Assembly: GCA_965261775.1 (NCBI GenBank)
Contig: OZ253477.1
Coordinates: forward strand, 1,738,178 to 1,802,177
DNA length: 64,000 bases
Origin: Gammaproteobacteria bacterium
GTDB lineage: Bacteria > Pseudomonadota > Gammaproteobacteria > Eutrophobiales > Eutrophobiaceae
Reading direction: 5' to 3'
Under the pieces are notes generated by a model, which searched no databases, was not told the DNA's origin, and saw only the letters and a program-made list of their open reading frames with translations. Shown here piece by piece: positions 15,736-44,695 of this stretch. The first letter of the stretch is position 1, and each line of letters starts with the position of its first letter. Both the position numbers and the translations under genes were made by a program.

Positions 15736-16026
15736 AAACCTTTATCCTGCTACTTGGTTATTGATTTTATGTAGGAGTTAACCGGTTCAAAAAGCTATGA
15801 TGATTATAAAGGATTTAAAAAGGGGCCTATATAAAATTCTATCAAAGTGTTTCTTTATCTAATTTTAAGCAGATCGGGCAGGAAGTAAGCTGGATTGTCC
15901 CTAATGGTTCTGTCTTTCTTTAACGATTTCGTTATAGTCTGGTTACAGTAGCCTGCGGGAGTGCAGGCTACGGTCTCATCTACAGAGATATTATTATTCT
16001 CAAAATCCTTGACTATTTCCTGCTGT

Positions 16027-16660
16027 TTACCCTGATTGAAACAGTGGAAATGGGTGGATACTGTAAGTACAAGCATTGCTCGTTCTTGCCGATAAATTTA
16101 TGAACTGCCTGCAACTCAGCACGGCTTTTTTGGTGTCAAGGGTATCTTTAGCTTTACTAATATGCCTATGATAAAGTCTGGTTCCTCGCCTAGAAAGTCC
16201 ATCAATTGATATTTCTTCACATCCTGTTTGCTTAGCGAATGTCCCTCGCACGCTTGTGGCACATTTTACCACCGATAGACGTTTCACTCTCTTCTATCAC
16301 AACTAGGCAAGTCGCCGGTCTGTTCAAGCATTTTTCGTAAATGCTTGTGGCAATCTGTGTATTGCGGGATACCAGCTTTTCGTTCTTTACCCGGCTTATG
16401 CTGATTCTGCCAAAATGCGGAAAAAGCGGCTCGCTTTCCTGCGGTGCAGAACCTCTATATGTTCCCGTTTGGCTTGCTTTTCTGGGAAAGCGCCACCATA
16501 GATTGATACCGATCCAAACTTTCTCGCCTGACGTTGTCTAGTATTACACATCACAGGTTTATAAAAGTCTGGTGGACAGAATTATATTGGTATCGGGCGA
16601 CGCCGATTCTGTGCCGGCCACGAAACTGGCACGAAGGTCCGTTCGTATCTTAAAGAAAGT
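16027..16660 (-). pseudogene. mutM: Decayed formamidopyrimidine-DNA glycosylase gene (mutM/fpg relic) downstream of rpmG
   Basis: Collinear fragments in shifting minus-strand frames match MutM. RQRQARKFG matches VQRRAKYL, FPEKQAKREHIEVL matches LPPEKHDHVDLV, IYEKCLNRPATC matches YLHQKCAKKKTAIK, SIGGKM matches VGVGNIY, and the C-terminal ...AVLSCRQF matches ATFYCRQCQ with the zinc-finger cysteines lost. Several stops and frameshifts interrupt it. The rpmB-rpmG-mutM synteny of E. coli and Pseudomonas predicts mutM at this position. Confidence 0.5.
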
Positions 16661-16667
16661 GCCGGTT

Positions 16668-16823
16668 TTATTTGATCTTCGCTTCCTTGTAAAGGACATG
16701 TTTGCGGATAACCGGATCAAATTTTTTAATTTCCATTTTGTCCGGTTTGGTGCGTTTGTTCTTGGTGGTGGTGTAATAATGCCCCGTATTTGCCGAGGAG
16801 ACGAGCTTTATTTTTTCGCGCAT
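16668..16823 (-). CDS. rpmG: 50S ribosomal protein L33, missed by the ORF track (51 aa)
   Basis: Minus-strand translation is [51 protein letters not shown]. It lies directly downstream of rpmB. Confidence 0.92.
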
Positions 16824-16835
16824 GGCGATTCTCCG

Positions 16836-17072
16836 TTAAATATTCTCGCCGCGGGCACGCATATCCGCGAGCGCTTTATTAATGCCATTTTTATCGATCA
16901 TGCGTAGACCCTGTTTACTGACGCGCAATCGTACCCAGCGATTTTCGCTTTCTACCCAGAATCGTCTGTATTGTAAATTGGGTAAAAAACGGCGTTTCGT
17001 TTTGTTATTGGCATGGGAGACATTGTTTCCTACCATTGGTTTTTTACCTGTTATCTGACATACCCGCGACAT
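16836..17072 (-). CDS. rpmB: 50S ribosomal protein L28
   Basis: [64 protein letters not shown]. The start is placed at the internal Met, giving the canonical 78 aa. Confidence 0.93.
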
Positions 17073-17203
17073 AATTTTCTCGCCAATGTTTACAAAATAG
17101 AGCAAAAGATAATGAAAGAGAGCGAATTCTAACCGTATTTAATATGGCATGCAAGGGAAGCATCCATTTTTTATTCGCTGGTCGTCCGACTTCGGGAAAG
17201 GCA

Positions 17204-17887
17204 TCATAGTAATCCCTTTTCGGCAAAGGAGGTAGTCTTTTTGTTACCGATGATGACATGATCAAGCACTCGGACATCAATCAGAGCAAGGGCCTTTTTC
17301 AGTTCTTTTGTCAATATAATGTCGGCCCGGCTCGGTTCTGCAATACCGGAAGGATGATTATGGGAAAAGATAACAGCGGCGGCGTTATGTTTTATGGCCA
17401 TGCGGATGATTTCTCTTGCGTATACATGAGCAGTGTCAATGGTACCAAAAAAGAGTTTGTTAAAACTGATTAGACGGTGATGGTTATCAAGGTATAAACA
17501 AGCGAATACTTCATGCGGGTAGGAACGCAGTTTCATGCTTAAATATCCCGCCGTTTGTTCCGGGTTGCTGAATGTTTCGCCAGTTTCCAGTCCAGATTGA
17601 AGATAGCGGCGGCCGAGTTCAAGTGCAGCTTGAATCTGGGCATATTTGGCTTCTCCCAAGCCCTTTGTCTGGCAGAATTCATTTTTATCAAGGTCAACGA
17701 TTTGTCGCAATCCTTTGAATTTTCCCAATAGTCTCCGTGCCAGATCGAGTGCAGAGGTACCTTTGCGGCCAGTTCTGAGAAAAATGCATAATATTTCTGC
17801 ATCCGATAACGCCTCTGGTCCTTTTTCAAGCAGTTTTTCTCTGGGCCGTTCATTGACAGGCCAATTTGAGATAGTCATTTGTAACAC
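17204..17887 (-). CDS. radC: RadC/UPF0758 JAB-domain protein
   Basis: N-terminal HhH region (ERPREKLLEKGPEALSDAEILCIFLRTG) and a C-terminal JAB/MPN domain with HNHPSG. Confidence 0.9.
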   Translation of the reverse strand: MLQMTISNWPVNERPREKLLEKGPEALSDAEILCIFLRTGRKGTSALDLARRLLGKFKGLRQIVDLDKNEFCQTKGLGEAKYAQIQAALELGRRYLQSGLETGETFSNPEQTAGYLSMKLRSYPHEVFACLYLDNHHRLISFNKLFFGTIDTAHVYAREIIRMAIKHNAAAVIFSHNHPSGIAEPSRADIILTKELKKALALIDVRVLDHVIIGNKKTTSFAEKGLL

Positions 17888-17976
17888 TCCCTGTTAATTA
17901 TGATTAAAATATATTTTTTAATAATGGCTATATCTCATTATCAGTGCCCGCCTATGATAAGGTAAAATGACATAAG

Positions 17977-19194
17977 ATGTACCGACTGATCGACAATAAA
18001 CATATTCTGCTTGGTGTCACCGGTGGCATCGCCGCCTATAAATCGGCGACATTAATACGTTTATTGCGCCGCCATGGTGCAGAAGTGCGTGTTGTCATGA
18101 CACCCAACGCGACCAAATTTATTACACCATTAACGTTACAGGCGCTTTCGGGGAATCCGGTGCATGTCGAATTGATGGGGGTAACGTCGGAATCGGCTAT
18201 GGTCCATATTGATTTAGCCCGCTGGGCGGATTTGGTCATCGTTGCACCGGCCAGTGCCGGCTTTATTGCCCGCTACGCGCATGGTTTTGCCGATGACCTT
18301 CCGGGGTCGATATGTCTGGCAACAATGTCCCCGGTCATGATCGCCCCAGCGATGAACAGACAAATGTGGTTGAATCCAGCGACTCAGGAAAATCTGCGAA
18401 GGGTAAAGGCATTTGGTGTCCGTATTCTGGGTCCCGCCGAAGGGGATCAGGCCTGCGGTGAAAATGGCCCTGGCCGTATGCTGGAGCCTGAGGAACTTGC
18501 CGAGCGGGTGGTTGAGTCTTTTCAACCGTACAGCCTTGCGGGCATCCGTTTAATGGTCACCGCAGGTCCTACGCGTGAAGCCATTGACCCGGTACGTTTT
18601 ATCAGTAATCGAAGTTCGGGCCATATGGGCTATGCCATTGCCGAGGTTGCCTCTGAGGCGGGTGCCGATGTGTCGGTCATTTCCGGACCGGTCAAACTGC
18701 CCCTCCCGGAAAGGGTTAAAATAACCCGGGTCGTCTCCGCAGAAGAGATGTATGAAAGCGTGATGCGTCAAATTGACGGAATTGATATTTTTATCGCAAC
18801 GGCAGCGGTGGCGGATTACCGGCCACAGTCGACATCCAGAGGAAAGATAAAAAAGCAGGCGCCCCGGCTTGAACTCACACTGGTTAAAAACCCAGATATT
18901 TTGGGGGCGGTGGCGGCGCTTGATAGAACCCCCTTCACTGTCGGTTTTGCGGCTGAAACGGAAAACCTTGAGGCAAACGCCAGGATTAAACTGGATGAGA
19001 AAAAGCTGGACATGATCGTAGCCAATAAGGTCGGTGAAGGTCTCGGGTTTGAAACAAGCATTAATGCTCTGACCATTATCTGGAAGGACGGGCAAAAACG
19101 GCTGGCAGAAGCGCCAAAAGGAAAACTGGCAAGAGACCTGATACGCTTCGTCGCTGATCGCTATCATGCAAAGCGAACCAGTTACATTCACTAG
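17977..19194 (+). CDS. coaBC: Bifunctional phosphopantothenoylcysteine decarboxylase / phosphopantothenate-cysteine ligase
   Basis: ILLGVTGGIAAYKS flavoprotein N-domain and a CoaB C-domain. It lies divergent from radC as in E. coli and Pseudomonas. Confidence 0.93.
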   Translation: MYRLIDNKHILLGVTGGIAAYKSATLIRLLRRHGAEVRVVMTPNATKFITPLTLQALSGNPVHVELMGVTSESAMVHIDLARWADLVIVAPASAGFIARYAHGFADDLPGSICLATMSPVMIAPAMNRQMWLNPATQENLRRVKAFGVRILGPAEGDQACGENGPGRMLEPEELAERVVESFQPYSLAGIRLMVTAGPTREAIDPVRFISNRSSGHMGYAIAEVASEAGADVSVISGPVKLPLPERVKITRVVSAEEMYESVMRQIDGIDIFIATAAVADYRPQSTSRGKIKKQAPRLELTLVKNPDILGAVAALDRTPFTVGFAAETENLEANARIKLDEKKLDMIVANKVGEGLGFETSINALTIIWKDGQKRLAEAPKGKLARDLIRFVADRYHAKRTSYIH

Positions 19195-19269
19195 ATGGTT
19201 GTCTCAATGGTTTACTTCTATCGTCAGATAATTCAATTCGGGCTGGTCTGACCGAAGGAGGTATTTATC

Positions 19270-19731
19270 ATGAAAAGCAAAATCCATCTTATCGCTGCGA
19301 TTACTGGCACGCTGTGCATTAGCGTGTTTTTTATTTCTACGGTGCTGGTGGAGTTGTTTGGTTCGGCGGAAGCTATCAAAACGGTGAAATCGCTGATTGT
19401 CAGCCCCGGATTATTTATTCTGGTGCCGGCCATGGCATTGACGGGCATCACAGGTACCATGCTGGGTAAAGGCCGAACCGCCGGGCTGGTGGGGGCGAAG
19501 CGCAAGCGTATGCCATTCATCGCCGCCAATGGTTTGTTGATTCTGGTGCCTTCGGCGATTTTCCTGGATCAATGGGCATCCGTGTATCACTTCGGCACGG
19601 CGTTTTTTGCCGTGCAGGGGTTAGAACTGGTGATGGGTTCAGTAAACCTGACACTGATGGGGCTGAATATGCGCGATGGGTTGAAGATGAAAGGCAGGTT
19701 TCGGCGAGGACGAGGCAGCGCTGAAGGGTGA
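19270..19731 (+). CDS. Hypothetical small inner-membrane protein, about 4 TM segments
   Basis: 153-aa ORF with a good SD (GGAGG). It is hydrophobic with a basic C-terminus. It occupies the slot where dut normally follows coaBC. Confidence 0.5.
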   Translation: MKSKIHLIAAITGTLCISVFFISTVLVELFGSAEAIKTVKSLIVSPGLFILVPAMALTGITGTMLGKGRTAGLVGAKRKRMPFIAANGLLILVPSAIFLDQWASVYHFGTAFFAVQGLELVMGSVNLTLMGLNMRDGLKMKGRFRRGRGSAEG

Positions 19732-20224
19732 AGGGTTGATCGGGCGGATCAGTCGGGTCAGCCAGACCGGGCGGTTCACGAAGGAGTGTATTAACAGGGC
19801 AGTTTGTCTGTCGCCAAAAATATGCTGGCATAAAATGTAGTGGCGATTGTTCAAGGGAAACTGGTCAAATCCCGGGACATATCTGTCAACGAATGAAACA
19901 TTGGTGGCCGTTGCCGTCGCGAATCAGTCTCATTTTGATAAGGCCTTGAAGTTGGGCTATTTCTGCTTTGGTACCTATGTTTTTGGTGAAACCTCAATTC
20001 CATCGCTCAGAGGCCCCGTTGAACAGACTTAAAAGGGCGGAATGGATAGGCAATACTAATCTGGGAGGGCATTTATTCGAAACATCGGAAGAACATATTG
20101 TCTCGGTGGAACATATCAATAATGGTGCATTTAAATGAATCGTGTAGCTTTAATATCATTGTACTGGAAAGATTGTTTGCAGGTTATTGGTTTGGTGGGG
20201 GGTATATGGACTTAGTTCAACGTG

Positions 20225-20556
20225 CTAATGGGAGAAGTTTGGTTTTGACTGAGAATAGGGAACCCCGAGTATGCGGCAGAAGAGGAGCTGGACTTAATGT
20301 TGATGATACGTGTCGGAAAGTCGCTTATTAGTCGGGCCAACGTGATATCGTTTCAGTAGTCCGGTCAAGTTTCTACGGTTTTTTGATTATTCCTGTTGCA
20401 ATTATTATTGCGCTTTTGGTGGCTATTTTTCTTGTGCTGATTAAACTGAAGCGTATTCTGGCAGAGACGGAAGATAAAGATGGTTATATAAGCTATGAAG
20501 GTACCATCAAGGCGATACCGCCTACCCTTCTAGCCTGCAATGGTTTTAGAGAATAA
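20225..20556 (+). pseudogene. dut: Possible dUTPase relic (dut pseudogene)
   Basis: Weak collinear motif echoes sit in two frames with Dut-like spacing. EPRV-CGRRGAGLNVDD echoes DPRV..SGSAGLDLRA, LIIPVAIIIAL echoes LVPTGLAIHIAD, and DKDGYISYEG echoes IDSDYQGQL. The coaBC-dut-algC synteny predicts dut here. There is no intact ORF. Confidence 0.3.
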
Positions 20557-20579
20557 AGGCTCGGAGGAGGGCAAAGTCG

Positions 20580-21986
20580 ATGAAAAATAATACCGCAATA
20601 CCACAACCTGATATTGCTTCGGTCATTTTTCGCGCATATGACATAAGGGGCATCGTCGGCGAGATGTTAAATGAAGATGTTATTTATGAAATTGCCCGGG
20701 CAGTCGGCACCAAGGCAAATGCGCTTGACCAGCAATGTATCATCGTTGGACGTGATGGTCGAAACTCAAGCGCTGGATTGCTTGGGAGCTTAATCAAAGG
20801 TTTACTTGATACGGGCAGGGACGTTATTGATATCGGGCTAGTCCCGACGCCGGTATTATATTTTGCTACCCACCATTTACAAACGGGTAATGGTATTATG
20901 GTAACGGGTAGTCATAATGCCCCCGAGTATAATGGCCTGAAAATCATGCTGGCGGGTAACTGCCTGAGTGGTGATGAAATCAAGGCGATTCAAACCATGA
21001 TTGGTACCGATGCGCTAGTTTCGGGACGAGGTAATCTGAGTCACGTTGACATGGAGGAGGATTATATTCAGCGTATTTGCGAGGATATGCCGTCCGTGCG
21101 GGGTCACCCGTTAAAGATCGTTGTTGACTGCGGTAATGGGGCGGCAGGCATCATCGCACCCCGGCTAATCAGAGCCATGGGACATGATGTGGTTGAGATA
21201 TACTGTGATATTGACGGTGATTTCCCCGGTCATCATCCCGACCCCAGCCAACCAGAGAACCTGCAGGATCTTATCGCAAAAGTGAAAGCGGAAGGCGCCG
21301 ATATCGGTTTTGCATTTGATGGCGATGGTGATCGCCTCGGATTGGTTGATGCGAAAGGTAATATTATTTGGCCCGACCGGCAACTTATGTTGTTGTGCAG
21401 GGATGTCCTGGCGAGAAACCCGGGGGCACAGATCATATTTGATGTGAAATGCAGTCGCCACTTGGAATCAATTATAGAGATTAATGGCGGACGGCCATTG
21501 ATGTGGAAGACAGGCCATTCTTTTATCAAGAACAAAATGAAAGAGGTGAATGCACCACTCGCTGGCGAGATGAGCGGCCATATGTTTTTCAAGGAGCGCT
21601 GGTACGGTTTTGATGACGCTTTATATACCGCTGCCCGGTTTATTGAGATTTTTACTAGCGTACAGGCCACGCCAACGGAATTGTTTATGGGCTTGCCGGC
21701 AGGGGTCTCCACGCCAGAACTCCGCCTGCCTTTGGCAGAAGCCGAGCATCACGATTTTATGGAAAAATTAACTGAAAAGCTGCTGGTGGCCGGTTCCAGA
21801 TTAATCAGTATTGATGGTCTCCGTATTGAGTACAGTGATGGTTGGGGTTTAGCCAGACCTTCCAACACCTCGCCCTGTATCGTCATGCGTTTTGAAGGAG
21901 AAAGTAAAACCTCGCTTAAGCGTATCCAATCCCAGTTTCGCACTGCCATAAAAGAAGTCAAGGCAGATGCGGAAATACCATTTTAA
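20580..21986 (+). CDS. algC: Phosphomannomutase/phosphoglucomutase
   Basis: Active-site loop TGSHNAPEYNGLK, metal-binding DGDGDR and a sugar-binding C-terminal domain. 468 aa, upstream of argB as in Pseudomonas. Confidence 0.93.
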   Translation: MKNNTAIPQPDIASVIFRAYDIRGIVGEMLNEDVIYEIARAVGTKANALDQQCIIVGRDGRNSSAGLLGSLIKGLLDTGRDVIDIGLVPTPVLYFATHHLQTGNGIMVTGSHNAPEYNGLKIMLAGNCLSGDEIKAIQTMIGTDALVSGRGNLSHVDMEEDYIQRICEDMPSVRGHPLKIVVDCGNGAAGIIAPRLIRAMGHDVVEIYCDIDGDFPGHHPDPSQPENLQDLIAKVKAEGADIGFAFDGDGDRLGLVDAKGNIIWPDRQLMLLCRDVLARNPGAQIIFDVKCSRHLESIIEINGGRPLMWKTGHSFIKNKMKEVNAPLAGEMSGHMFFKERWYGFDDALYTAARFIEIFTSVQATPTELFMGLPAGVSTPELRLPLAEAEHHDFMEKLTEKLLVAGSRLISIDGLRIEYSDGWGLARPSNTSPCIVMRFEGESKTSLKRIQSQFRTAIKEVKADAEIPF

Positions 21987-22021
21987 TTATGATAGCAATG
22001 GACATTTTATCTTGAGTATAA

Positions 22022-22942: not shown

Positions 22943-23445
22943 TAAGAGATGATTGCTCTGACACCAAGTCAAACAGACGACAATAGTGAATAAGGGCCTG
23001 CACATCATGCCCGCTGGCCTGTCCGAAGTTGCTCCGTTCCATCATTTTTCCAGAAGGCAAAAATGTTTGAGCCCTGATTGATGAGGAACATTCCGTATTT
23101 GGCTTGATTAATCAGACCATCGGGAATGCGCCTGTCGTCATCAGCCACCATACAGTAATTGTCCAGCTTATATTGGGTTTTGCGGAGAAAACCCGGGAAT
23201 TATGCACATATTGAACAGCAATGTTTTGCTAGACGAGAACGTACAGCTACAAATACGCGCCGTGCCATTTTTTAGATGGTTTGAAATACAGTTACATCAG
23301 ATTTTGCGGGAGGTAAATCTGGTTGAAGGATATAGGGTGTTCAATAATTAGACAACATGGAAGGCAGATGCCTGTTTTCGTGTACAACTCGTTAGTTTGA
23401 GGGAAAATAATAGTTTGGTCAGCAGGCAGGGTTGTTCACATAGCC

Positions 23446-26216: not shown

Positions 26217-27041
26217 TTATTCCTCAAATTCTGCGGAAAGCGCTTGCGCTTGTTGTGTTGCTGCCTTGATAGCCTCTTGCACGATGGTTCCCAGATTTTT
26301 TCGTGTAAATACTTCTAACGCCTGCTCGGTGGCACCTCCGGGTGATGTTACCTGTTTTCGCAGTGTTGCCGGGTCGGCACTGGACAAAAGTGCCATCTTT
26401 GCGCTACCCACGGCCGTTTCCAAGATTAACAGCCGTGCTTGCTCTTTATTCAATCCCATATCTTCCGCTGCCTTTTCCATACATTCCATCAGATAAAAAA
26501 AGTAGGCTGGACCACAACCGGACAGTGCTGTCACACAATCCATTTGTGTCTCATCGTTTAACCAGATGGTGCTGCCTACCGAGCGTATTAGAGTTTCCGC
26601 GCAATTTTTTTGTATCTCCGTAACATGCTCATTAGCGAGGAGGGCAGATACTCCCGCCTGTATCAGCGCGGGCGTGTTTGGCATCACCCGTAAAATGGCT
26701 GCTGGATGCCCAAGCCAGCGTGCAATCGAATCCAGTTTTATTCCTGCCGCGATGGAGATGATTAACTTCTCCGTATCTCTCAGCGCAGGGGCGACCTCTG
26801 TGACGACGCCGTGCATAACCTGGGGTTTTACTGCCAGCACAATGATATCTGCCCCTGCGGCAACAGTTTGGTTATCGGCATCGGTGTGGAGCCCGAATTG
26901 TTCGGACAATATCCGCCGTTGTTCTGGATCGGGGTCTGATGCCGCAAGGTGGTCGGTCGGCATGCCGTTTGCGACCAATCCGCCGATCAGGTTTCGGCCC
27001 ATATTGCCACAACCGATAAAGGCAATATTAGTGTTTTCCAT
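26217..27041 (-). CDS. proC: Pyrroline-5-carboxylate reductase
   Basis: IAFIGCGNMG Rossmann motif and a ProC C-terminal dimerisation domain. Confidence 0.93.
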   Translation of the reverse strand: MENTNIAFIGCGNMGRNLIGGLVANGMPTDHLAASDPDPEQRRILSEQFGLHTDADNQTVAAGADIIVLAVKPQVMHGVVTEVAPALRDTEKLIISIAAGIKLDSIARWLGHPAAILRVMPNTPALIQAGVSALLANEHVTEIQKNCAETLIRSVGSTIWLNDETQMDCVTALSGCGPAYFFYLMECMEKAAEDMGLNKEQARLLILETAVGSAKMALLSSADPATLRKQVTSPGGATEQALEVFTRKNLGTIVQEAIKAATQQAQALSAEFEE

Positions 27042-27720
27042 AGCAATGAGCTGGCGTCAAATGGTTGTAGAGGTCGGTCGAGAGGAACAGTAAATGACCA
27101 AAGGTCTCGCACGTAATCAGTGGGGTGTCCAGTTCAAGACAGATTCGGGTACGCGATCGCAGACATTCTCGTAATGCAACGAACAGCTTACGCTGCGTTG
27201 CCAGTGAAACATTTGGTGCAGATAGCGTCATCACGCCCCACCCTCGAAATATTTTCGAAAATTTCAACGCTTTAATGAAGCCGGAGGTGTTATTGGTAGC
27301 GATATCAGGTTTACTCGCTTCGCCGCTGATGTTGACATGGAGGCAGGCATTCAGAACGGACTTTTTTTTTGGTCTCAAGCCATTCAGATGCCTGATTGTT
27401 TTGAACCTGTCAACAGTATACACCCAGTCGAAGTCGCTGGCGATTTGTCCGGTTTTATTGGTTTGGATTGAACCGACGGAATGCCGGACCAGCGTTGAAT
27501 TACTGATGCACGTTATTTTTTTCATTGCTTCCAGGCAGTAATTTTCGCCAAAATGTTTCTACCTTCAAATGTATATCGTGGCCATTATTTTTTTCGAGCT
27601 ATGATTTTTATTGATTAAAGATGCACAGAGTTGTCTAAACGGTTATAGTCTTCTTCTGGAATTTTTAATGCGAACTCTAATTTTAGTCAGGTTAACCGTT
27701 TGTTTCATATAAGAGATGGT
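27028..27720 (-). pseudogene. yggS: PLP-homeostasis protein YggS, disrupted by in-frame stops in the N-terminal third
   Basis: The C-terminal two-thirds is in frame (GSIQTNK..FDWVYTVDR..LHVNISGEASK..GVMTLSAP). Upstream, the same frame reads ...LCASLINKNHSSKKIMATIYI*R*KHFGENY. That is collinear with YggS LLAVSKTKP...GENY but carries two stop codons. A further upstream fragment MKQTVNLTKIRVRIKNSRRRL* matches the YggS N-terminus and also ends in a stop. Confidence 0.6.
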
Positions 27721-27926
27721 GGTCTGTGATTTGAATATTGGACTGAAATATTTCAATGAATGATCGTTACTTGAATTTTATAAAGATAACCATATCTTCA
27801 AGCCTATTTTTATAGGGTATTATAAAGTAAAATTCAAAATTGATCGAAAATATTTTTCGATAATACGCGCTTATTATAACGCGATTAAGTATCATTCATC
27901 TATTGTATTACCTATAGGAGGTATAA

Positions 27927-28961
27927 ATGGATATTAGCGAACTTTTGGCTTTTGGTATTAAAAAAGGTTGTTCCGACGTGCATTTATCATCGGGTTTACC
28001 TCCGATGATACGTGTTGATGGTGACATACGTCGTCTCGATGCTGAGCCTCTGGAGCATAAAGATGTCCATGAGATGGTGTATGACATTATGAACGACAAG
28101 CAGAGGAAGGATTATGAGGAATTTCTGGAATGCGATTTTTCCTTTGAAATTCCCAACTTGTCCCGTTTTCGTGTAAATGCCTTTAATCAAAACCGCGGAG
28201 CAGGAGCTGCGTTTCGCGTCGTCCCTTCCGAGGTTCTGTCGCTTGAAGCGTTGGGGACCCCCAAGATATTTGAGCAAATTGCCGGTTATCCGCGAGGAGT
28301 GGTGTTGGTTACCGGGCCTACCGGTACGGGTAAGTCAACAACACTGGCCGCCATGGTGAACCATAAGAACCAGCATGAACACTCGCATATCTTGACGATT
28401 GAAGATCCGATCGAATTTGTGCATAAAAGCGAAAAATGTCTTATCAATCAGCGTGAAGTCCATCAGGATACGCTTGGTTTTAGTGAAGCATTACGCTCGG
28501 CAATGCGTGAAGATCCGGATGTGATCATGGTCGGTGAACTGCGTGATCTGGAAACCATACGCCTGGCATTAACAGCGGCAGAGACCGGCCATCTGGTGTT
28601 TGCAACCGTGCATACCTCTTCGGCTGCTTCCACTATTGACCGGATAGTTGACGTATTTCCGGCCGCGGAAAAGAGTATGGTGCGTACGATGTTGTCCGAG
28701 TCATTGAGGGCAGTTATCTCACAGGTATTGTTGAAGAAAAAGAGCGGTGGTCGTGTGGCAGCATATGAAATCATGATTGTTACCCCCGCCATTCGTAATC
28801 TGATTCGTGAAAATAAAGCTGCACAGATGTTCTCGGCGATACAAACGGGACAGCAGTTTGGTATGCAGACACTTGACCAGCATCTGCAAAAATTGGTACA
28901 GCAAAATATCGTTGCCCGTCAGGAGGCACTGACCAAAGTGGAAAACAAAGATCATTTCTAG
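27927..28961 (+). CDS. pilT: Type IV pilus twitching-motility retraction ATPase PilT
   Basis: Walker A GPTGTGKST, Asp and His boxes, and the PilT-specific AIRNLIRE motif. 344 aa. Confidence 0.93.
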   Translation: MDISELLAFGIKKGCSDVHLSSGLPPMIRVDGDIRRLDAEPLEHKDVHEMVYDIMNDKQRKDYEEFLECDFSFEIPNLSRFRVNAFNQNRGAGAAFRVVPSEVLSLEALGTPKIFEQIAGYPRGVVLVTGPTGTGKSTTLAAMVNHKNQHEHSHILTIEDPIEFVHKSEKCLINQREVHQDTLGFSEALRSAMREDPDVIMVGELRDLETIRLALTAAETGHLVFATVHTSSAASTIDRIVDVFPAAEKSMVRTMLSESLRAVISQVLLKKKSGGRVAAYEIMIVTPAIRNLIRENKAAQMFSAIQTGQQFGMQTLDQHLQKLVQQNIVARQEALTKVENKDHF

Positions 28962-29038
28962 CGGTTCTTGAAGATAAAATCTAATAAAACTCAGGAACTG
29001 TTCCTGAAAATATATTGGCTTCTTAAAAGAGAATAGAT

Positions 29039-30220
29039 ATGGAAAGAGAAACGGCTATTAGAACAATGCGCGAGCTTCTCAAGCTGATGGTCGATAAAGG
29101 CGGATCGGATTTATTTATTACGGTCGGTTTTCCGCCAGCTATTAAATTTCACGGCAAGGTGGAACCGGTTTCTAAAACCAAACTCAAACCGGAAAATACA
29201 GAGGCGCTGGTGTATGTAGTTATGAATGACAAGCAATTAAAGGAGTATGAAGCCACCAAGGAATGTAATTTCGCTGTTTCGCCTTTTGGTATTGGCCGTT
29301 TTCGCGCCAATGCATTTATTCAGCAGGGTTACTGTGGTTTGGTTATGCGCGTGATCGAAACAGAAGTACCGGAGATTGATAAATTAAGGTTGCCCCCAGT
29401 ATTAAAGGATGTGGTCATGGCCAAGACAGGTTTAATTATTATGGCGGGTGGCACCGGTTCTGGTAAATCAACCTCGCTGGCGGCTATGATCAACCATCGT
29501 AATCAGAATAGCTGTGAACATATTATTACCATAGAGGACCCCATTGAATATGTTCACAAGCATAAGAACTCAATTGTAACACAGCGTGAGGTGGGCGTGG
29601 ATACTGACGACTGGGGAATCGCGCTTAAGAATGCATTACGACAGGCCCCTGACGTCATTCTAATTGGTGAGATTCGAGACCGGAGAACGATGGAATTTGG
29701 TCTTGCCTTTGCGGAAACGGGGCAGTTGGCAATGGCGACCTTGCATGCTAATAACTCCAATCAGGCACTTGATCGCATTGTTAACTTTTTTCCGGAAGAA
29801 CGAAGGGAACAGCTATTGATGGATATATCATTGAACCTGAGAGCCGTTATCTCCCAACGGTTGTTAAAGAAAAAAAATGGAGAAGGTCAGGTGGTCGCTG
29901 TTGAAGTTATGTTGAATTCGCCGCTTATCGCCGACTTGATCCTGAAAGGTGAGGTACATGAAATTAAATCTGTCATGTTCAAATCTGATCGTCTAGGCAT
30001 GCAGACTTTCGATCAGTCTTTATTTGAACTGTACGAGTCTGACCAGATCAGTTACGAGGATGCTGTACGTACAGCCGACTCAATGAACGAATTACGCTTG
30101 AGAATTAAATTGGAAAGCAAAAAAGAGGTAAGAAAGGGGATAAATGATGTAGACCATCTCAGCCTAGAACGAACGCACCACGACAAAAATGACGATAAAA
30201 ATCAGCCAAGAACCCCTTAG
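29039..30220 (+). CDS. pilU: PilU-type type IV pilus retraction ATPase with a charged C-terminal extension
   Basis: Walker A GGTGSGKST and a His box. It lacks AIRNLIRE and has PLIADLILKG instead. 393 aa with an unusual ~40-aa Lys/Asp-rich tail. Confidence 0.88.
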   Translation: MERETAIRTMRELLKLMVDKGGSDLFITVGFPPAIKFHGKVEPVSKTKLKPENTEALVYVVMNDKQLKEYEATKECNFAVSPFGIGRFRANAFIQQGYCGLVMRVIETEVPEIDKLRLPPVLKDVVMAKTGLIIMAGGTGSGKSTSLAAMINHRNQNSCEHIITIEDPIEYVHKHKNSIVTQREVGVDTDDWGIALKNALRQAPDVILIGEIRDRRTMEFGLAFAETGQLAMATLHANNSNQALDRIVNFFPEERREQLLMDISLNLRAVISQRLLKKKNGEGQVVAVEVMLNSPLIADLILKGEVHEIKSVMFKSDRLGMQTFDQSLFELYESDQISYEDAVRTADSMNELRLRIKLESKKEVRKGINDVDHLSLERTHHDKNDDKNQPRTP

Positions 30221-30236
30221 TTTTACAGGAAAATCC

Positions 30237-31304
30237 ATGAATATAGAGCCTTATCTTAAATTAATGATTGAAGAAAATGCCTCCGATATTTTTTTTACGG
30301 TAAATGCGGATGTTAAAATCAAAACAGAAGGCGAGATCAGGTCTGTCGGTAAAACAGTTTTAACTAGTGAATTGATAGAGAAAATTGCTGACAGCATCAT
30401 GGATGAATACCACAAAGAACGATTTAGTAAAGATTTGCAGTGTGATTTTAGCATCAGTTTTTTTGATAGTCTTTCTTCTTCTGCCCGTTTCCGGGCTAAT
30501 GTATTTCGCCAGCGTGGTGATATTTGCATCGTAATACGTTTTATCCCGGGCAAGATTCCAACGTTTCAAGAATTGGGACTCCCGGAAATTTTAGCCGAAT
30601 TGATCATGAAAAGGCGCGGTCTTCTGCTCATAGTGGGTGGAACGAGTTCGGGTAAATCGACAACGATGGCAGCCATGGTTAATCACCGTAATCAAAGCAT
30701 GGCGGGTCATATACTGACCATAGAAGACCCGATAGAATTTAGTCATCCTAACCTTAAATCCATAGTTAGTCAGCGTGAAGTGGGTGTAGACACAAAGTCA
30801 TACCCCGATGCATTGAAGTCAGCAATGCGTGAGGCCCCGGATGTCGTTCTCGTTGGCGAGATTCGTGATCGTGAAACGATGGAGGCAGCTCTTGAATTAG
30901 CCAATACGGGCCATCTGGTCATCGCTACTATGCATGCGGTTAATGCTGACCAAGCGATAGACCGCGTGATTAATTTGTTTCCACAGGAGCTCCATAAACG
31001 GGTATTCACGGATTTATCGTTAAGCGTACATGCGATCATATCACAGCGTCTGGTTCTGAATGTGGATAATGGGCGTTGTGCGGCATTCGAAATTCTGATT
31101 AAGACCCCCTACATTGCCGAACTGATACTGAAAGGAGATGTTGGTAAAATCAAGACCGCTATGAGTGAAAGCGGTCAATACGGGATGCAAACGTTTGATG
31201 CAGCCTTGCTGAACTTATACAGAGAAGGTCGTATTGTACTTGAAGAAGCATTAAGCAATGCCGATTCAAGGTCTGACCTTGAGTCCAAGATCAATTTCAG
31301 CTAG
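30237..31304 (+). CDS. Second PilU-type retraction ATPase paralog
   Basis: Walker A GGTSSGKST, His box GHLVIATMH, and PYIAELILKG. The start is placed at the internal Met (MNIEPYLKLM), 17 nt after the pilU stop. Confidence 0.85.
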   Translation: MNIEPYLKLMIEENASDIFFTVNADVKIKTEGEIRSVGKTVLTSELIEKIADSIMDEYHKERFSKDLQCDFSISFFDSLSSSARFRANVFRQRGDICIVIRFIPGKIPTFQELGLPEILAELIMKRRGLLLIVGGTSSGKSTTMAAMVNHRNQSMAGHILTIEDPIEFSHPNLKSIVSQREVGVDTKSYPDALKSAMREAPDVVLVGEIRDRETMEAALELANTGHLVIATMHAVNADQAIDRVINLFPQELHKRVFTDLSLSVHAIISQRLVLNVDNGRCAAFEILIKTPYIAELILKGDVGKIKTAMSESGQYGMQTFDAALLNLYREGRIVLEEALSNADSRSDLESKINFS

Positions 31305-32487: not shown

Positions 32488-32669
32488 ATTGATGGATGCG
32501 GTGGTTCCTGTGCCGCGATTGCAATAGCAAAATATATCCGCCGTCGGAATGCGCCGAACACCAAGACAACGATATATTGACAAGGCACATAGGATATTTG
32601 TGGATAAAATATTGTCGACCCTCGTGTGTGAGGGGCTACATGAAAAGGCCATCTGCAGAAATCGCTAAG

Positions 32670-32865
32670 ATAGCGGGTATCAACCACGATATCGTCTCAG
32701 ACATTGAACTTGAACCAAGGTTCAAGGTGGGTGTCCCGGCCGGTACATCAGGCTTGCCATGAAATGGCCATGCACATCACAATACCGCGTCAAACTCCCG
32801 TTTTCGTAACTTATAAGCTCAAGTTACCATGAGCAGATAACGAATATCACAGAAGATACCCAAAT
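32670..32865 (-). ncRNA. ssrS: 6S RNA (SsrS)
   Basis: The minus strand immediately downstream of zapA contains the conserved 6S 3'-central hairpin CACCUUGAACCUUGGUUCAAG (E. coli CACCUUGAACCAAGGGUUCAAGG). A closing terminal stem pairs 5' GGGUAUC with 3' GAUACCC. Total length is about 190 nt. The placement matches the zapA-ssrS synteny. Confidence 0.6.
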
Positions 32866-32896
32866 TTGTCTTTGCAACAGAATCAATATAAACAGT

Positions 32897-33211
32897 TTAT
32901 GCGTCAAGCCGTTTCTCTTCGGTTAACGCACTATCAAGCTTCATATGCAACCGTTTAAGTACCATGTTTATCTCCAAATTATAGTCACTATTTTGTTGTT
33001 TGCAAGTCAGAAATTCATCGGTGATATTCAGAGCGGTCATTACCGCGATGCGTTCGGAACCTATGACCCCGCTGTTCTTCTTCGTCTCCAGCGTCTTTTT
33101 GTTCAGGTAAGCGACAGCGTCAAGGAGCGGTTTTTTTTCTTCTTCCGTACAGTTAATAAGATAGTCTTTGTCAAGAATAGTTACCTTTACCGGTTGTTTT
33201 GCTTTGTTCAT
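32897..33211 (-). CDS. zapA: Cell division protein ZapA
   Basis: VKVTILDKDYLINCTEEEKKPLLDAVAYLNKK...ERIAVMTALNITDE. 104 aa. Confidence 0.9.
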   Translation of the reverse strand: MNKAKQPVKVTILDKDYLINCTEEEKKPLLDAVAYLNKKTLETKKNSGVIGSERIAVMTALNITDEFLTCKQQNSDYNLEINMVLKRLHMKLDSALTEEKRLDA

Positions 33212-33426
33212 GAGCTTTTTTCCATTGCATGCAGACGGGTAATCATTGATTCTATACGCATTCTGGCCTGTTCCGTTTTTTTGATCAGAGTAGCGCGTTC
33301 ATTGATCAAGTTTGTCTGCTGATTTCGCAGCGCTTGATTTTCCGATGTCAGTTTCTTAACCCTGCTGACGAGTTCATCAACACGTTTTTCCAGTACACTC
33401 AGATCAATATTCGCGTTGTTGTTCAT
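33208..33426 (-). CDS. Small coiled-coil protein of the family found upstream of zapA (TIGR02449-like)
   Basis: 72-aa all-helical heptad sequence that overlaps the zapA start by 4 nt. Pseudomonas has the same arrangement. Confidence 0.65.
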   Translation of the reverse strand: MNNNANIDLSVLEKRVDELVSRVKKLTSENQALRNQQTNLINERATLIKKTEQARMRIESMITRLHAMEKSS

Positions 33427-39511: not shown

Positions 39512-40408
39512 ATGCAGATAAATCCGGACATACTGTATCGTTCACGGCTTGACAGTTTGCCACTGATTCACAGTGGCAAGGTCAGAGACCTTTACGCCGT
39601 TGATGATCGGCACATGTTGATTGTGACCAGCGACAGGATCTCGGCCTTTGACGTTGTCTTGCCGGACCTCATACCAGGGAAAGGCCAGATTCTGAACGAA
39701 ATATCCAATTTCTGGTTCGGAAAATTTGAGCGCCTCATCCCTAATCATCTTGTCGCTGTCGGAGTGGGAGACGTTATTGAAGACCCGGATGAACTTGAGA
39801 TGCTTGCTGGGCGTGCCGTGGTTGTCAAAAAATTAAAGGCCTTATCGGTAGAGGCGGTCGTGCGCGGCTATCTCATTGGTTCCGGTTGGAAGGACTACCA
39901 AACAAGCCATTCCGTTTGCGGGATCCCGTTACCGGATAATTTGCAACAGGCGGAAAAACTATCAGAGCCGCTCTTTACCCCGGCAACAAAGGCCAATGTC
40001 GGTGAGCATGACGAAAATATTGATTTTAAGCGAATGGCCGATTTGACTGGTCGGGAAACGGCGGAGCAGATACGGGATATCAGCATCCGGCTTTACTCCT
40101 TGGCGGCGGAGTATGCTTTGGAGAAAAATATTATTATTGCGGATACCAAGTTTGAATTTGGCTTGGATGATAACGGAGAACTGGTTTTAATTGATGAGTT
40201 ACTCACGCCAGATTCTTCCCGTTTTTGGCCAATGGAATCTTACCGTGCGGGAACAAGCCCGCCTAGTTTCGACAAACAGTATGTTCGTGATTATCTGGAA
40301 AGTCTGGATTGGGACAAGCGCCCACCCGCCCCGTCCCTGTCGCCGCAGGTGATTGAAAACACCATGGCAAAGTATGCCGAGGCCAGAGACAAACTGATAT
40401 TGAGGTGA
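39512..40408 (+). CDS. purC: Phosphoribosylaminoimidazole-succinocarboxamide synthase (SAICAR synthetase), long form
   Basis: [11 protein letters not shown] and DRISAFD motifs. The start is placed at the internal Met (MQINPDILY); the ORF track extends 19 codons upstream. Confidence 0.88.
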
Positions 40409-40415
40409 GCTTGGT

Positions 40416-41054
40416 ATGTGGAAAATAGAGAAATTAATCGATGGTTATCAACGTTTCTATAGATGTTATTTTGAAGAACAGCCGGAGCGCTATGAAAGAC
40501 TGTTCAAAGTGGGTCAATCGCCGGGTGTGATGATAGTGGCCTGTTGCGATTCCAGAGTTCCCCCCGAACAGATAACGGACGCTGTGCCGGGCGATGTCTT
40601 TACCGTACGTAATGTCGCCAATCTTGTGCCGGAAAACGCCGCGCTGATAGAAGATTACAGTACCTGCGCCGCCGTGGAATTCGCTGTCAGATCTCTGGGT
40701 GTCAGGCATATTATTATCATGGGGCATAGTCAGTGTGGCGGGATAAGAAGACTCATGGAAGGAGACACCGATCAGACTTACGACTTTGTTGACTCTTGGA
40801 TGAAATCCATTAGTCACGTTCGCAAGGCTGTTTTAGATGTTCATTCCGGTAAGCCGTTTGCTGAACAGTGCGCCTTTTGTGAAAAGGCGTCTATTGTCAA
40901 TTCGCTTGAAAATCTGAAAACGTTTCCCTGGCTTAAAGAAAAGGTGGATGCGGGTGAACTGTCTTTGCACGGCTGGTATTTTGATATCGGCACGGGCAAT
41001 CTGCTTGTTGGACAGGATGATGAATTTATTCCTTTGGATGGAACAGGCGATTGA
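40416..41054 (+). CDS. Beta-class carbonic anhydrase
   Basis: CCDSRV and GHSQCGG zinc-ligand motifs. 212 aa. Confidence 0.9.
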   Translation: MWKIEKLIDGYQRFYRCYFEEQPERYERLFKVGQSPGVMIVACCDSRVPPEQITDAVPGDVFTVRNVANLVPENAALIEDYSTCAAVEFAVRSLGVRHIIIMGHSQCGGIRRLMEGDTDQTYDFVDSWMKSISHVRKAVLDVHSGKPFAEQCAFCEKASIVNSLENLKTFPWLKEKVDAGELSLHGWYFDIGTGNLLVGQDDEFIPLDGTGD

Positions 41055-42175
41055 GGACAGAGAGGTAAATATGCCGCACCTTGAAAAGGTTGCTCTAATG
41101 AGAGCGATGCCACGACCTCATCAGCAATATTCACATGTCGGTGACTCTTGAAACATTGGATGATATCCAGGGGGCTAGTGCCTACCTTGTTATTATGGTT
41201 TTTTCCTTATTCCCTTTATTGGTATCGATAGTGATCGGGGTCAAAGCAAAATAGAAGCGGGGGCAGGAGATTGGGGGCTATTGACGGCTTGTTAGGTGGG
41301 CATGGATATGACCCGGATCGGGGCAGAAAACTCTCAAAAGAGAAGCGCATATAAAACGTTTCCCATAGTTTACTTTATCCAGAAATGATCTGAATCTTTC
41401 CGATTAAAGCATTAAGGATAAACTAATTACGGATTTACAAAGCCCGCAGGGTCCCGCAATTAAGACCGCAAATCAAACCCATTTTGTGCATCTGGACACT
41501 CAGGTTGTTTCCATTGAAAGGTAAAGTGTATTAGAACCATTTGCGGAGCTCGGTTCCGTTTTGATATATTTGTGCTCGGGGTTTCTCCTAGCAAGACTAC
41601 AAGCAGCTCGAAAGAGAATAATCGAGAGTCATTATCTTAAAGTTATTATCTTAAGGCAAAATTAAGGCAAAAATCGCAGTTTCTGCCATTAATAAACAGG
41701 GGGTAGGAATATTTTAGACTGGAAGGATGATTCTTGTGCGGCTGGAGGGGTATGCGGGTTAACCCAATGTGGATTTTTGGAGCGATATATTGCTAAATAT
41801 GAACTAGTAAAAAAGGTATCTAAAGGAATGGAGACTCGTATGAGTTAAGGCGTCGAATTTAATGTAAGGTAATTAAATTCATAGGGTACAAATACGGTTG
41901 TGGCAAAGAGTGTGATTATATTATTCAGTCTATTTTGAAATTAGCTGCGATCACCTTCGCTTTTACACAAGAAGAAATTAGGGTTAGAGATATATCGTCT
42001 CCATAGCGATGAGATATTTTAAGAATGAGCCAATCGGGTCAAATTGACAGAAGCCTATGAAGCCAGATACGTAATCATTGAAGGTTTTTCGGGGGAAATT
42101 GGCAGATAGCAACAAAAAGACTAATTATCTTGCAGGAGATCAACTAATATGTTGTGTACTAACAGTATATCTATT

Positions 42176-42610
42176 ATGAAACACGTTACATTTATTGCAA
42201 TATCCCTTGTGTTTTTATGGCCGCTTGATGGTCTTCGCGCTGATGGAACACTGCGTTCAGAAACACCGGAAGGTGTGCGTCTTTATTTTATCCAGCCAAA
42301 ATCCGATCAGACCGTTTCGCGGGAATTTGATGTCCTCTTTGGATTATCTGGTATGGGTGTCGCGCCTGCCGGCATTAATGTTGAAAATACCGGTCACCAC
42401 CATTTGTTGATAGATGTAAACGAACTTCCAGATATGAACAAACCGATTCCCGCCAGCGATAATATCAAGCATTTTGGCAAAGGTGAGACCCAGACCCGAC
42501 TAAAGCTAATGCCGGGCAGCCATACCCTGCAACTCTTGCTGGGAAATTATTTACATATCCCGCATGACAAACCGGTGCTGTCGGAGAAAATAACCGTCAT
42601 TGTGGAGTAA
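42176..42610 (+). CDS. Secreted DUF4399-like protein
   Basis: Signal peptide and an NTGHHHLLID motif. About 145 aa. Confidence 0.55.
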   Translation: MKHVTFIAISLVFLWPLDGLRADGTLRSETPEGVRLYFIQPKSDQTVSREFDVLFGLSGMGVAPAGINVENTGHHHLLIDVNELPDMNKPIPASDNIKHFGKGETQTRLKLMPGSHTLQLLLGNYLHIPHDKPVLSEKITVIVE

Positions 42611-42749
42611 TACCGGTGATGGAGGGGCGTTGTCCACGGTAGTGGTTATATCCTGATCAGGAAACCCTCGACGTAGTTATTGATAATACAGTTCTGCAGT
42701 CAGTGCAAATAGAATAAGCATTTTGCTTGGATAATTGCTGAAGCCGGAT

Positions 42750-43733
42750 TTATCGGGAAAGGACCTCTTCAAATAAAGTCTGATACTTTTTTATCATCTG
42801 TGTGAGCGTAAACTGGCTTTCAATTTTTGCGCGATTATATTCCCCCATCTCCCGGCACAGCTTTGGGGCCGCCGCCAGGTAGTTAATTTTCTCTGCAAAT
42901 TCCGCTACCGCTCCCGGCGTACAGAGAAAGCCACCCTCATTATTGTCAAGCAACTCCGGCAGGGACGAACAATTGCTTGCAATCACGGGCAATCCGCATG
43001 ACATGGCTTCCGCCACGCTCAGCCCGAATCCTTCCCGATAACTCGGAAACAGGAAAATATCTGCTTCATGATAAAGCCTGTGTATTTCCGTATGAGAGTA
43101 TTGCCCGACGGGGTGCGCCTTGTCGTGGCGAATAAGGACTCTGGTGTTGCGTAGGCCGGTCGTATAGCGTAATTCGATATTACCCGCTACCTTGTCAAGG
43201 ATGGCGGGGATTAGGTCCGTCCCCTTTTTAGGCGATAAATTACCGCAGAATAGCAACGTTATTTTGCTGGAATCTGATTTTGGGCGGGGGAAAAATCTGT
43301 TCGTATCAACACCGTTATGAATCACGCAAATATCGCCCTGATAAGCCAGTTCGCGGCGTACCAACCGGGCAATATAGTGACTAACTGCGGTGATTCTGGA
43401 CGATTTTGACAGTGCATATCGTGTATATAATCTCAGGTCCGTTTGATAGTGTATTTTCTGTAACAAAGATGAATATTGATGGATGTACTTATCTAAAACG
43501 AACCCGTGAAACGTCGAAACAAGCGGGGTGCCCTTTCTTCTAGAAAAAATCGCGTAGTCCACTGGAGTGTGGATAATATCGGCCCTTTCATGGCCAATCA
43601 GGCGTAGCAATGGCGGGAAAAGTGCTAAATACGGATGATAGGCTTTTACTCTATAGTCTGAAATGCCCTGTTCCAGCATTTTATGTACTATATAAGCGCC
43701 ACTGCCACGGGGCGTCATACTTACGATTTTCAT
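42750..43733 (-). CDS. Family GT4 glycosyltransferase (group 1)
   Basis: C-terminal EGFGLSVAEAMSCGLPVIAS motif typical of GT-B/GT4 enzymes. 327 aa. Confidence 0.85.
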   Translation of the reverse strand: MKIVSMTPRGSGAYIVHKMLEQGISDYRVKAYHPYLALFPPLLRLIGHERADIIHTPVDYAIFSRRKGTPLVSTFHGFVLDKYIHQYSSLLQKIHYQTDLRLYTRYALSKSSRITAVSHYIARLVRRELAYQGDICVIHNGVDTNRFFPRPKSDSSKITLLFCGNLSPKKGTDLIPAILDKVAGNIELRYTTGLRNTRVLIRHDKAHPVGQYSHTEIHRLYHEADIFLFPSYREGFGLSVAEAMSCGLPVIASNCSSLPELLDNNEGGFLCTPGAVAEFAEKINYLAAAPKLCREMGEYNRAKIESQFTLTQMIKKYQTLFEEVLSR

Positions 43734-44260
43734 GATAACCCGAATAGTGCGTAAAGGCGCATTAAAAAATTTATCTCTGATTTCAAATCACGTTCACTAA
43801 AATGATTAGCGTTGCCAACATATTACCGTCTGTCCTGTTTCGTTTTATGTCAAATCTGGTGCCACACCTTCAGCAAAGGGCACAGTTTTTTAATTTGATT
43901 TATCCTGAATTCGAAATTCTCTATGAAATATTCAAGCAGGAAGATAACGCTCTAAAGCCGTCATTAAACGGCATGTGGTTTCACAAGGATCCTTTCGGAG
44001 AAAGTCCCTGTGCAAATCGTAGCCAATCGTTCTTGCTTTTTCCGTCCACGCAGAATTTTAATCTCTCCCTCTAGTTCCCGGGGGTATTTCCGTGACCATT
44101 TCAACGATCTGAGCCGAAATTAAAATATTTTCATCGTCAATATCGATATATGATATCACCAAGGTTTCCCCCTGCCCTTTCCGCTGGTAATCACTTAATT
44201 ATAGCCGTCACCAGTGCCGCCATTTAAATTGTTTGCCCTGAGAATATCCAATCCCGAGGT

Positions 44261-44533
44261 TTATTCCTCTATCCCAAAATAGCCGCGAATCACTTTACCG
44301 TTCTTTATGATTTTGTTTACCATATCCAGTGCCTGATTAATCGGTATTGCCAAACCTATTCCTTCTGAACCACCGTAGCTTGACACAATCGTTGTGTTGA
44401 ATCCAATTAGCCCACCTTTGATACTCACCAAGTGCCCGCCAGCGTTGCCCAAATTAATATCGGTATCCTTTCTTTCCCCTGCATGCAATATAGTCGGTTT
44501 AACAGTCTCCCGGTAAAATTCACAGGTAATCAA
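44261..44533 (-). pseudogene. Fragment of an HtrA/DegS-type serine protease gene with the active-site Ser replaced
   Basis: The 90-aa ORF matches only the C-terminal part of the trypsin-like domain (DINLGNAGGHLV..GIGLAIP..VIRGYFGIEE). GNSGG has become GNAGG, so the catalytic Ser is lost. The His and Asp part and the PDZ domain are missing. The flanking 43.8-44.65 kb has no other ORF. Confidence 0.55.
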
Positions 44534-44695
44534 TTTTACTTATCATGTTATAATGACGAAAGTTGATGGATGACAAAAGTGATGAATTTGGTTATAAGTA
44601 ATGCCAATAGTTGATAGTTGAATGCGTGCATTTCATGGTTCTCCATTCAATTATTCATTTACAAAAAGCTTGGTATCACCTCTTGAGGTAGCATA

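Follow-up and report, generated by a model that had tools for sequence, protein, structure and literature searches.

Is the DNA at positions 1,738,178 to 1,802,177 of contig OZ253477.1, a 64-kb stretch of a gammaproteobacterial genome (hereafter the window), being eroded as in the early stages of genome reduction, and if so, what kind of reduction is it? The original prediction held that genes for DNA fidelity and quality control (mutM, dut, yggS and htrA/degS) had decayed where synteny predicts intact copies, that long spacers free of open reading frames (ORFs) had opened between the remaining genes, and that the organism was a recently host-restricted symbiont or pathogen. Our analysis supports ongoing local gene loss at conserved syntenic positions together with lowered coding density, and sister strains of the same lineage add stops and shrink spacers. 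It does not support the proposed choice of lost genes or the host-restricted lifestyle. We consider it likely that this lineage is losing dispensable genes one by one from otherwise conserved operons, with deletional erosion following each loss.

The G+C content of the window is 46.6%, its housekeeping genes are gammaproteobacterial and in a familiar order, and the parent genome is small, at least 2.2 Mb (the contig is 2.21 Mb). Proteins were annotated with NCBIfam and Pfam, and RNAs with Rfam. The nearest species-level relatives are uncultured metagenome-assembled genomes labelled 'Gammaproteobacteria' or 'Thiotrichaceae' (CoaBC identity 63-66%), and even the closest sequenced relatives share only ~65-78% identity in their proteins. 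As the main reference we used an 871-kb contig from the Joint Genome Institute (JGI; ArgB 78%, PetA 72%), with three annotated loci (L087, L084 and L168). Two sister-strain contigs, L081 (98.7% nucleotide identity) and L082 (97%), overlap window positions 34225-55291 and were sequenced at 2x and 5x coverage. A pseudogene was called from homology to a functional family, disabling lesions and syntenic position together. Criteria for an early reductive genome follow McCutcheon and Moran 2012 and PMC5091035.

Pseudogenes at conserved syntenic positions

Four relics combine homology, lesions and syntenic position: yggS, degS, slmA and the N-terminal domain of AlgC. These four recognisable relics stand among ~62 intact genes in the 64 kb, and their identity to the corresponding sequences of relatives is 32-40%, compared with 60-78% for neighbouring genes. 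The slmA and AlgC relics had been missed in the original prediction.

The yggS pseudogene (27708-27028, minus strand) has three in-frame stops and a degenerate or shortened C-terminus. The stops fall at codons 22, 48 and 50 (TAA at 27645-27643, TGA at 27567-27565 and TAG at 27561-27559), and the relic forms one reading frame that is 40% identical to relatives' YggS across the stops by tblastn. Its score against NCBIfam TIGR00044 is 47 bits, where the cutoff is 106. At the 3' end, the ~35 last residues are unrecognisable and ~80 nucleotides (nt) are gone before proC. The longest open piece is an ORF at 27028-27525, and the interval 27526-27926 is made up of the 5' part of the relic and a normal divergent promoter region. 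The predicted decay of yggS is thereby confirmed. In the relatives L008 and L087, the place between proC and pilT is taken by an intact yggS of 229-232 amino acids (aa). Since TAA, TGA and TAG are all in-frame in yggS and all three also end normal genes, stop-codon reassignment was rejected.

A second relic fills the whole spacer between argB and a gene for a 215-aa protein (22943-23445, plus strand). This is a slmA pseudogene that changes frame at least four times and contains several stops, and it was recognised by Pfam SlmA-like_C (E=5e-9) and by a custom SlmA hidden Markov model (HMM; 1e-10); an intact 196-aa slmA is found at the same position in L087. A minus-strand C-terminal protein fragment previously noted in this spacer ('...FWKNDGTEQLRTGQRA*') is not a separate relic, but an antisense reading of the plus-strand slmA pseudogene.

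The decayed N-terminal extension of AlgC (19890-20579, plus strand) runs through frames +2, +3, +1 and +3, with stops. It accounts for most of the ORF-free stretch at 19732-20579 and lies directly 5' of an intact gene for the 468-aa catalytic part of AlgC, a phosphomannomutase/phosphoglucomutase (20580-21986, plus strand; NCBIfam E=7e-145). Compared with the AlgC proteins of four relatives (839-869 aa; L004, L005, L007 and L008), the relic gives summed E-values of 1e-16 to 3e-20 by tblastn and tblastx, while the catalytic part shares 66-71% identity with the C-terminal halves of relatives' AlgC. The window lineage has lost the AlgC N-terminal domain and kept the enzyme. It should also be noted that the extension of the relatives' long AlgC, ~390 aa, matches no Pfam domain and is predicted to contain one membrane helix. 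The long genes lie at 7451-9970 in L087, 11650-14184 in L005 and 11605-14199 in L008; their counterpart in the window spans 19890-21986.

The fourth relic derives from a degS/htrA-like serine protease (44467-44015, minus strand) and retains residues 211-365 of ~372 in three reading frames. The N-terminal ~210 residues are deleted, the GNSGG motif has become GNAGG (catalytic Ser to Ala), and the remaining sequence is broken by at least one stop and three or more frame changes. The best block has 64% identity (tblastn), and Pfam Trypsin matches with E=0.003. In relatives (L084, L085 and L086), an intact gene of 372-375 aa with Trypsin and PDZ domains lies divergent from and upstream of petA; the relic is at the corresponding position in the window, which confirms the claimed decay of this protease, and the bc1 complex (petABC) is intact, also as claimed. 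L081, L082 and L083 carry the relic with the same lesions, and there is one further stop in the latter two. Because the lesions are common to the strains, the gene died before the strains split, and the extra stop indicates that it is still decaying.

The surroundings of degS have been rearranged. In relatives, the genes MMPL-mlaC-bolA-murA-hisG-hisD-hisC separate DUF4399 from degS (L084 1-9877), while at 42149-44695 of the window this block is absent and a glycosyltransferase gene is in its place. Since murA is essential, the MMPL-to-hisC block must have moved. A rearrangement breakpoint therefore adjoins the degS relic.

Genes lost without a remnant

Compared with the gene order of relatives, three genes are cleanly lost: dut, pilZ and panB. 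The order coaBC-dut-algC is found in all close relatives. In the window, the dut slot is occupied by an intact gene for a 153-aa membrane protein with four transmembrane segments (19270-19731, plus strand). This protein is widely conserved: homologues fall into 722 representative clusters at E<=1e-3, and full-length matches reach 58% identity. It matched no Pfam or NCBIfam family. A dut relic had been proposed here, but tblastn, a six-frame Pfam scan and a family HMM detected no dUTPase similarity anywhere in the window. We conclude that dut is missing from its conserved position and has not decayed in place.

The mutM relic was not found either: in the 932 nt that remain of the gap to which it had been assigned, tblastn, the six-frame Pfam scan and a custom MutM HMM returned only noise. 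Searches for mutM and dut used tblastn with E-values up to 10 (for mutM, with the MutM proteins of three relatives) and HMMs built from 30 (MutM) and 55 relatives and run with --max. In the window, no tblastn match was better than E ~0.3, no Pfam match was obtained, and no HMM match was better than ~2-8. In relatives, mutM either lies five genes from rpmG, beyond an ABC-2 transporter cluster, or is missing at this locus. Because its position is variable, synteny does not predict mutM here; the nearest relatives do not place it at this site, contrary to the strong synteny that had been assumed. The gap in question (15736-17203) contains intact rpmB (17072-16836, minus strand; Pfam Ribosomal_L28, 5e-28) and rpmG (16823-16668, minus strand; Pfam Ribosomal_L33, 1.5e-15).

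The panB junction is at 56755-56766, where 12 nt separate dNK from panC. The order pcnB-folK-dNK-panB-panC-panD is found in L089, L094 and L098, panB is ~265 aa in relatives, and no similarity to panB was detected anywhere in the window. Both panB and smpB had been described as absent from their usual neighbourhoods. For panB this is correct, as a clean deletion from dNK-panB-panC-panD; smpB is indeed not beside ratA, although no relative's locus was available with which to compare that arrangement. With panC and panD intact beside the lost gene, the pantothenate pathway is interrupted unless panB is located elsewhere in the genome.

The last of the clean losses is a gene with a pilZ domain, which follows the third pilT in L087 and is absent there in the window. 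The three tandem genes for PilT-family ATPases themselves (27927-31304) are conserved with relatives (L087 16173-20060).

The lost functions are mixed. YggS acts in pyridoxal phosphate homeostasis, SlmA in nucleoid occlusion, DegS as an envelope-stress protease and PanB in pantothenate synthesis; the AlgC domain, pilZ and dut complete the set. dut is the only DNA-fidelity gene among the verified losses, and no mutM relic was found. Therefore, our data do not support a concentration of decay in DNA-fidelity and quality-control genes.

Coding density and erosion between strains

Bacterial coding density is usually 85-90% (PMC5091035). For the whole locus, the coding fraction of the window is 82.4%, compared with 93-94% for the three reference loci (L087, L084 and L168). 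From rpmG to the third pilT, a tally of the gene table gives ~81% for the window and ~94% for L087. The window is thus below the usual range at the scale of 64 kb, although the drop is modest. Long spacers are correspondingly frequent: 11/61 spacers in the window are at least 400 nt long, compared with 0/55 in the relative's three loci (Fisher p=7e-4).

Divergence of the large spacers from the two sister strains is 0.019 and 0.039 per site, which is 60-75% of the rate at four-fold sites (0.025 and 0.063). Codon positions 1 and 2 diverge by ~0.005-0.014, and the large spacers change 3-4x faster than these positions, with indels. The largest spacer, 1094 nt at 41055-42148, is indel-polymorphic among the strains and has three alleles: L081 is full, the window lacks 90 nt (at 41811/41812), and L082 lacks 653 nt (41159-41811). 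The 90-nt segment absent from the window is present in L081 (1013-1102) and L082 (site 6929-7011). Deletional bias removes bacterial pseudogenes (PMC5091035), and the spacer changes seen here are deletional erosion of weakly constrained or unconstrained DNA.

The 1094-nt spacer has no Pfam or Rfam match and no terminal repeats. Repeats, terminal inverted repeats and target-site duplications are all lacking around the 653-nt indel, and a mobile-element origin of the spacers was rejected on this ground.

Host restriction and gene turnover as alternatives

The same losses could reflect recent host restriction of a symbiont or pathogen, with early reduction, relaxed selection and drift across the genome and preferential loss of DNA-fidelity and quality-control genes. 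We regard this as possible but doubtful. Pseudogenes do occupy core syntenic slots, and the 82% coding density of the window is near that of facultative symbionts; for Hamiltonella defensa it is 80.8% (PMC5091035). The contig is also shorter than a related complete chromosome, L010 (2.21 Mb compared with 2.85 Mb); dut, degS and yggS are all lost; and a pantothenate pathway broken at panB would fit provisioning by a host.

However, several features expected under host restriction are lacking. A search for mobile DNA found no insertion sequence (IS) elements in the window, where transposase domains, tandem repeats and repeats of 25 nt or more are all lacking. There is no shift towards A+T, as the 46.6% G+C of the window is above the 39-43% at the seven closest coaBC loci. 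The ratio of nonsynonymous to synonymous substitution rates (dN/dS) of intact genes is ~0.14 against both sister strains, suggesting that selection on the remaining genes is effective. Tajima-type relative-rate tests, which covered only 611 sites, gave a significant result with two outgroups but not with two others, and so show no consistent acceleration. Genes for amino-acid and cofactor biosynthesis are intact in the window; argB, proC, hisBH, ilvA, panCD, ubiHI, hemF, purC and pyrE are all retained among the biosynthetic genes. As for DNA fidelity, the loss of mutM is unproven, and xthA and radC are intact. The absence of IS elements and repeats, the G+C content and the dN/dS ratio therefore do not support a recently host-restricted symbiont or pathogen. 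A related suggestion, which we put forward tentatively and regard as rather unlikely, is that the window comes from an uncultured marine-type lineage in an early, 'quiet' genome reduction that proceeds without IS expansion, AT drift or measurably relaxed selection.

It is unlikely that the pattern reflects ordinary turnover and rearrangement in a free-living bacterium with no reductive regime, in which case the spacers would be breakpoint scars and the 'lost' genes would have moved. Synteny is broken left of rpmG, around DUF4399, the glycosyltransferase gene and degS, and downstream of the carbonic anhydrase gene. In addition, murA and hisGDC, essential neighbours of degS in relatives, must exist elsewhere, and selection on the remaining genes is normal. 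However, four in-place pseudogenes and three clean deletions inside perfectly conserved operons are losses rather than relocations of blocks, and over the same syntenic block the coding density of the window is 11 points below that of the relative.

Content of the long spacers

The ORF-free stretches listed in the original prediction exist as described, but not all of them are empty. As seen above, 22943-23445 is the slmA relic and 19732-20579 is mostly the AlgC relic, while 1204-1985, 41055-42148 and 62815-63336 gave no relic. Adding 9935-10624, 15736-16667, 51001-51426 and 61063-61470 to these three gives seven spacers in which no relic was detected. The seven have no Pfam match in six frames, no Rfam match at E<=0.1, no repeats and no similarity to any fetched locus. 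They are probably older relics or rearrangement scars. A codon-usage test for fossil coding gave z-scores of 5.3 (AlgC), 4.8, 2.9 and 1.8 (degS) for the known relics and 0.6-2.7 for the relic-free spacers, but the test is low in sensitivity, as the degS score of only 1.8 illustrates.

Long spacers could also be functional, harbouring unannotated small RNAs, leaders, riboswitches or small proteins; we consider this quite unlikely. Other gaps do hold real small features, namely rpmB, rpmG, pqqA, zapA, the gene for a TIGR02449 protein and 6S RNA; the spacer at 15736-16667 folds better than its shuffles; and in one comparison the large spacers evolve more slowly than four-fold sites. Against this, two of the listed spacers are demonstrably pseudogenes, the largest tolerates deletions of 653 nt and 90 nt between strains, other spacers fold no better than shuffles, and none is similar to any locus of a relative. 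Known RNA families were rejected as the content of the spacers, as no Rfam family other than 6S RNA was matched in the window at E<=0.1.

One candidate for a structured RNA is the 932-nt spacer at 15736-16667, the proposed site of mutM, which has no coding remnant and a codon-usage z of 0.6. It folds with z=-3.6 relative to 20 shuffles. A hairpin at 15945-15974 has a near-perfect 12-bp stem, lies upstream of a gene for a Na+-dependent SNF-family transporter and has no Rfam match. Around it, 200-nt sliding windows give z ~ -3 for either strand; over 455 nt, however, z is only -1.6, and support for a structured RNA is weak and inconsistent. No remnants of MutM, the ABC-2 cluster or a desaturase were detected in this spacer by Pfam, tblastn or HMMs. 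Both this spacer and that at 41055-42148 were also searched for genes that in relatives neighbour rpmG, degS or the carbonic anhydrase gene, and neither gave remnants of the ABC-2 cluster, the desaturase, fba through tkt, MMPL through hisC, panB or pilZ.

Two further spacers deserve mention. The 782-nt spacer at 1204-1985 is AT-rich, lies between an orphan pqqA and a MATE transporter gene, and folds with z=-0.7. The 522-nt spacer at 62815-63336 lies upstream of a Ser/Thr kinase gene and has a faint codon-usage signal on the minus strand (z=2.7). The stand-alone pqqA (1129-1203, minus strand; peptide MKWETPEYNDIRFGFEVTMYINNK) scores 47 bits against TIGR02107, where the cutoff is 20, and has a palindrome 3' of it, a hairpin at ~1079-1105. 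No pqqBCDE adjoin it, and aroB ends at 983. This pqqA is an orphan copy or else all that is left of a lost pqq operon.

At 32677-33426 (minus strand), the TIGR02449-family gene, zapA and 6S RNA follow in the usual order, and the 5-formyltetrahydrofolate cyclo-ligase gene, a common neighbour of 6S RNA on its far side, is absent. The ygfB-like gene that usually lies upstream of pepP is also absent, and there is room for only 359 nt at that position. The ORFs at 32496-32762 and 32945-33322 are spurious overlaps.

That sequencing or assembly indels in a metagenome-assembled genome created the pseudogenes and gaps is extremely unlikely, and we rejected it: although low-coverage sister contigs carry probable error frameshifts (cytochrome b in L082; the glycosyltransferase gene in L081 and L082), the relics have decayed to 32-40% identity beside neighbours at 60-78%, have stops of three kinds and lack hundreds of bases, four independent assemblies have identical degS lesions, and the flanking genes are full-length and well conserved. 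In the sister contigs, single-base indels split the glycosyltransferase gene, a methyltransferase gene and the cytochrome b gene (L081 2041-3025 and 13241-13573; L082 10594-11854). As these splits are probably sequencing errors at 2-5x coverage, they were left out of the pseudogene tally.

Probable stepwise loss and its weak points

We favour the one-by-one loss of dispensable genes followed by deletional erosion, and the stages of such a process would coexist in the window. Single genes would first be inactivated by point mutation, frameshift or partial deletion; the dead DNA would then drift and be trimmed by small and medium deletions. Recognisable pseudogenes (yggS, slmA, degS and the AlgC N-terminal domain) may represent an early stage, anonymous long spacers a later one, and clean junctions (panB, pilZ and dut) the last. 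At the dut slot, both dut and the first ~100 codons of algC are missing and the 153-aa gene lies between coaBC and the AlgC relic, so a single replacement event probably removed dut and the start of algC. The same event would have brought in the 153-aa gene and left the long algC without its 5' end. What remained of the AlgC N-terminal domain would then have decayed, while an internal start codon kept the catalytic domain in use.

Several points weigh against this interpretation. The window covers only 64 kb, whereas the genome measures at least 2.2 Mb, and the regime may be local. The seven spacers without a relic (codon z 0.6-2.7) may be rearrangement breakpoints, regulatory regions or novel RNAs. 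In the comparison with L082, large spacers evolve more slowly than four-fold sites (0.039 vs 0.063, p=0.002), which could reflect constraint or composition-dependent mutation rates. Intact copies of the lost genes may also be present in other parts of the genome. Finally, the strain contigs, at 2x and 5x coverage, contain likely sequencing indels, such as the split cytochrome b gene of L082.

What the window records is moderate, ongoing erosion of housekeeping and accessory functions. It is not a collapse driven by a mutator or by IS elements, and it is not aimed at DNA-fidelity genes. The process is already known, and this is a real but ordinary instance of it. The chief value of the analysis lies in correcting the annotation: two spacers become pseudogenes, two claimed relics are absent, and several gaps contain real small genes. 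In addition, the stepwise erosion of pseudogenes is visible between sister strains. If the pattern were true genome-wide, the lineage would show in nature how genome reduction begins in bacteria other than the much-studied symbionts of insects, and would be, if the organism also proved to live in a host or a restricted niche, a useful non-insect, non-enterobacterial case of the onset of reduction. Genome-wide loss of dut, slmA, degS and panB would further predict effects on uracil handling, cell-division control and the envelope-stress response, together with dependence on pantothenate.

Comparison with known systems

Examples of early or moderate genome degradation include Sodalis glossinidius, Serratia symbiotica, Hamiltonella defensa and Mycobacterium leprae. 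The window resembles such facultative or recently host-restricted degraders in the in-place inactivation of housekeeping genes, a coding density below 85-90%, the deletion of pseudogenes and a genome in the 2-4 Mb class. It differs from them in showing no proliferation of mobile elements, no AT enrichment relative to its relatives and no clearly raised dN/dS. Its biosynthetic genes are largely intact, and a density of 82% is at the mild end of their range.

A second comparison is with SAR11, free-living marine bacteria with streamlined genomes. The small genome and the loss of accessory functions are shared. However, in streamlined genomes coding density is very high and spacers are tiny, the opposite of the window.

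A third comparison is with the deletional bias and pseudogene extinction dynamics of bacteria that Mira, Ochman and Moran in 2001 and Kuo and Ochman in 2010 reportedly described. The window contains the graded series that this model implies, which starts with fresh pseudogenes, passes through anonymous spacers and ends in clean junctions, and sister strains carry independent deletions of the same spacer, as the model predicts. There is no qualitative difference between the two, and the window would add one more illustration of the model, from an uncultured lineage.

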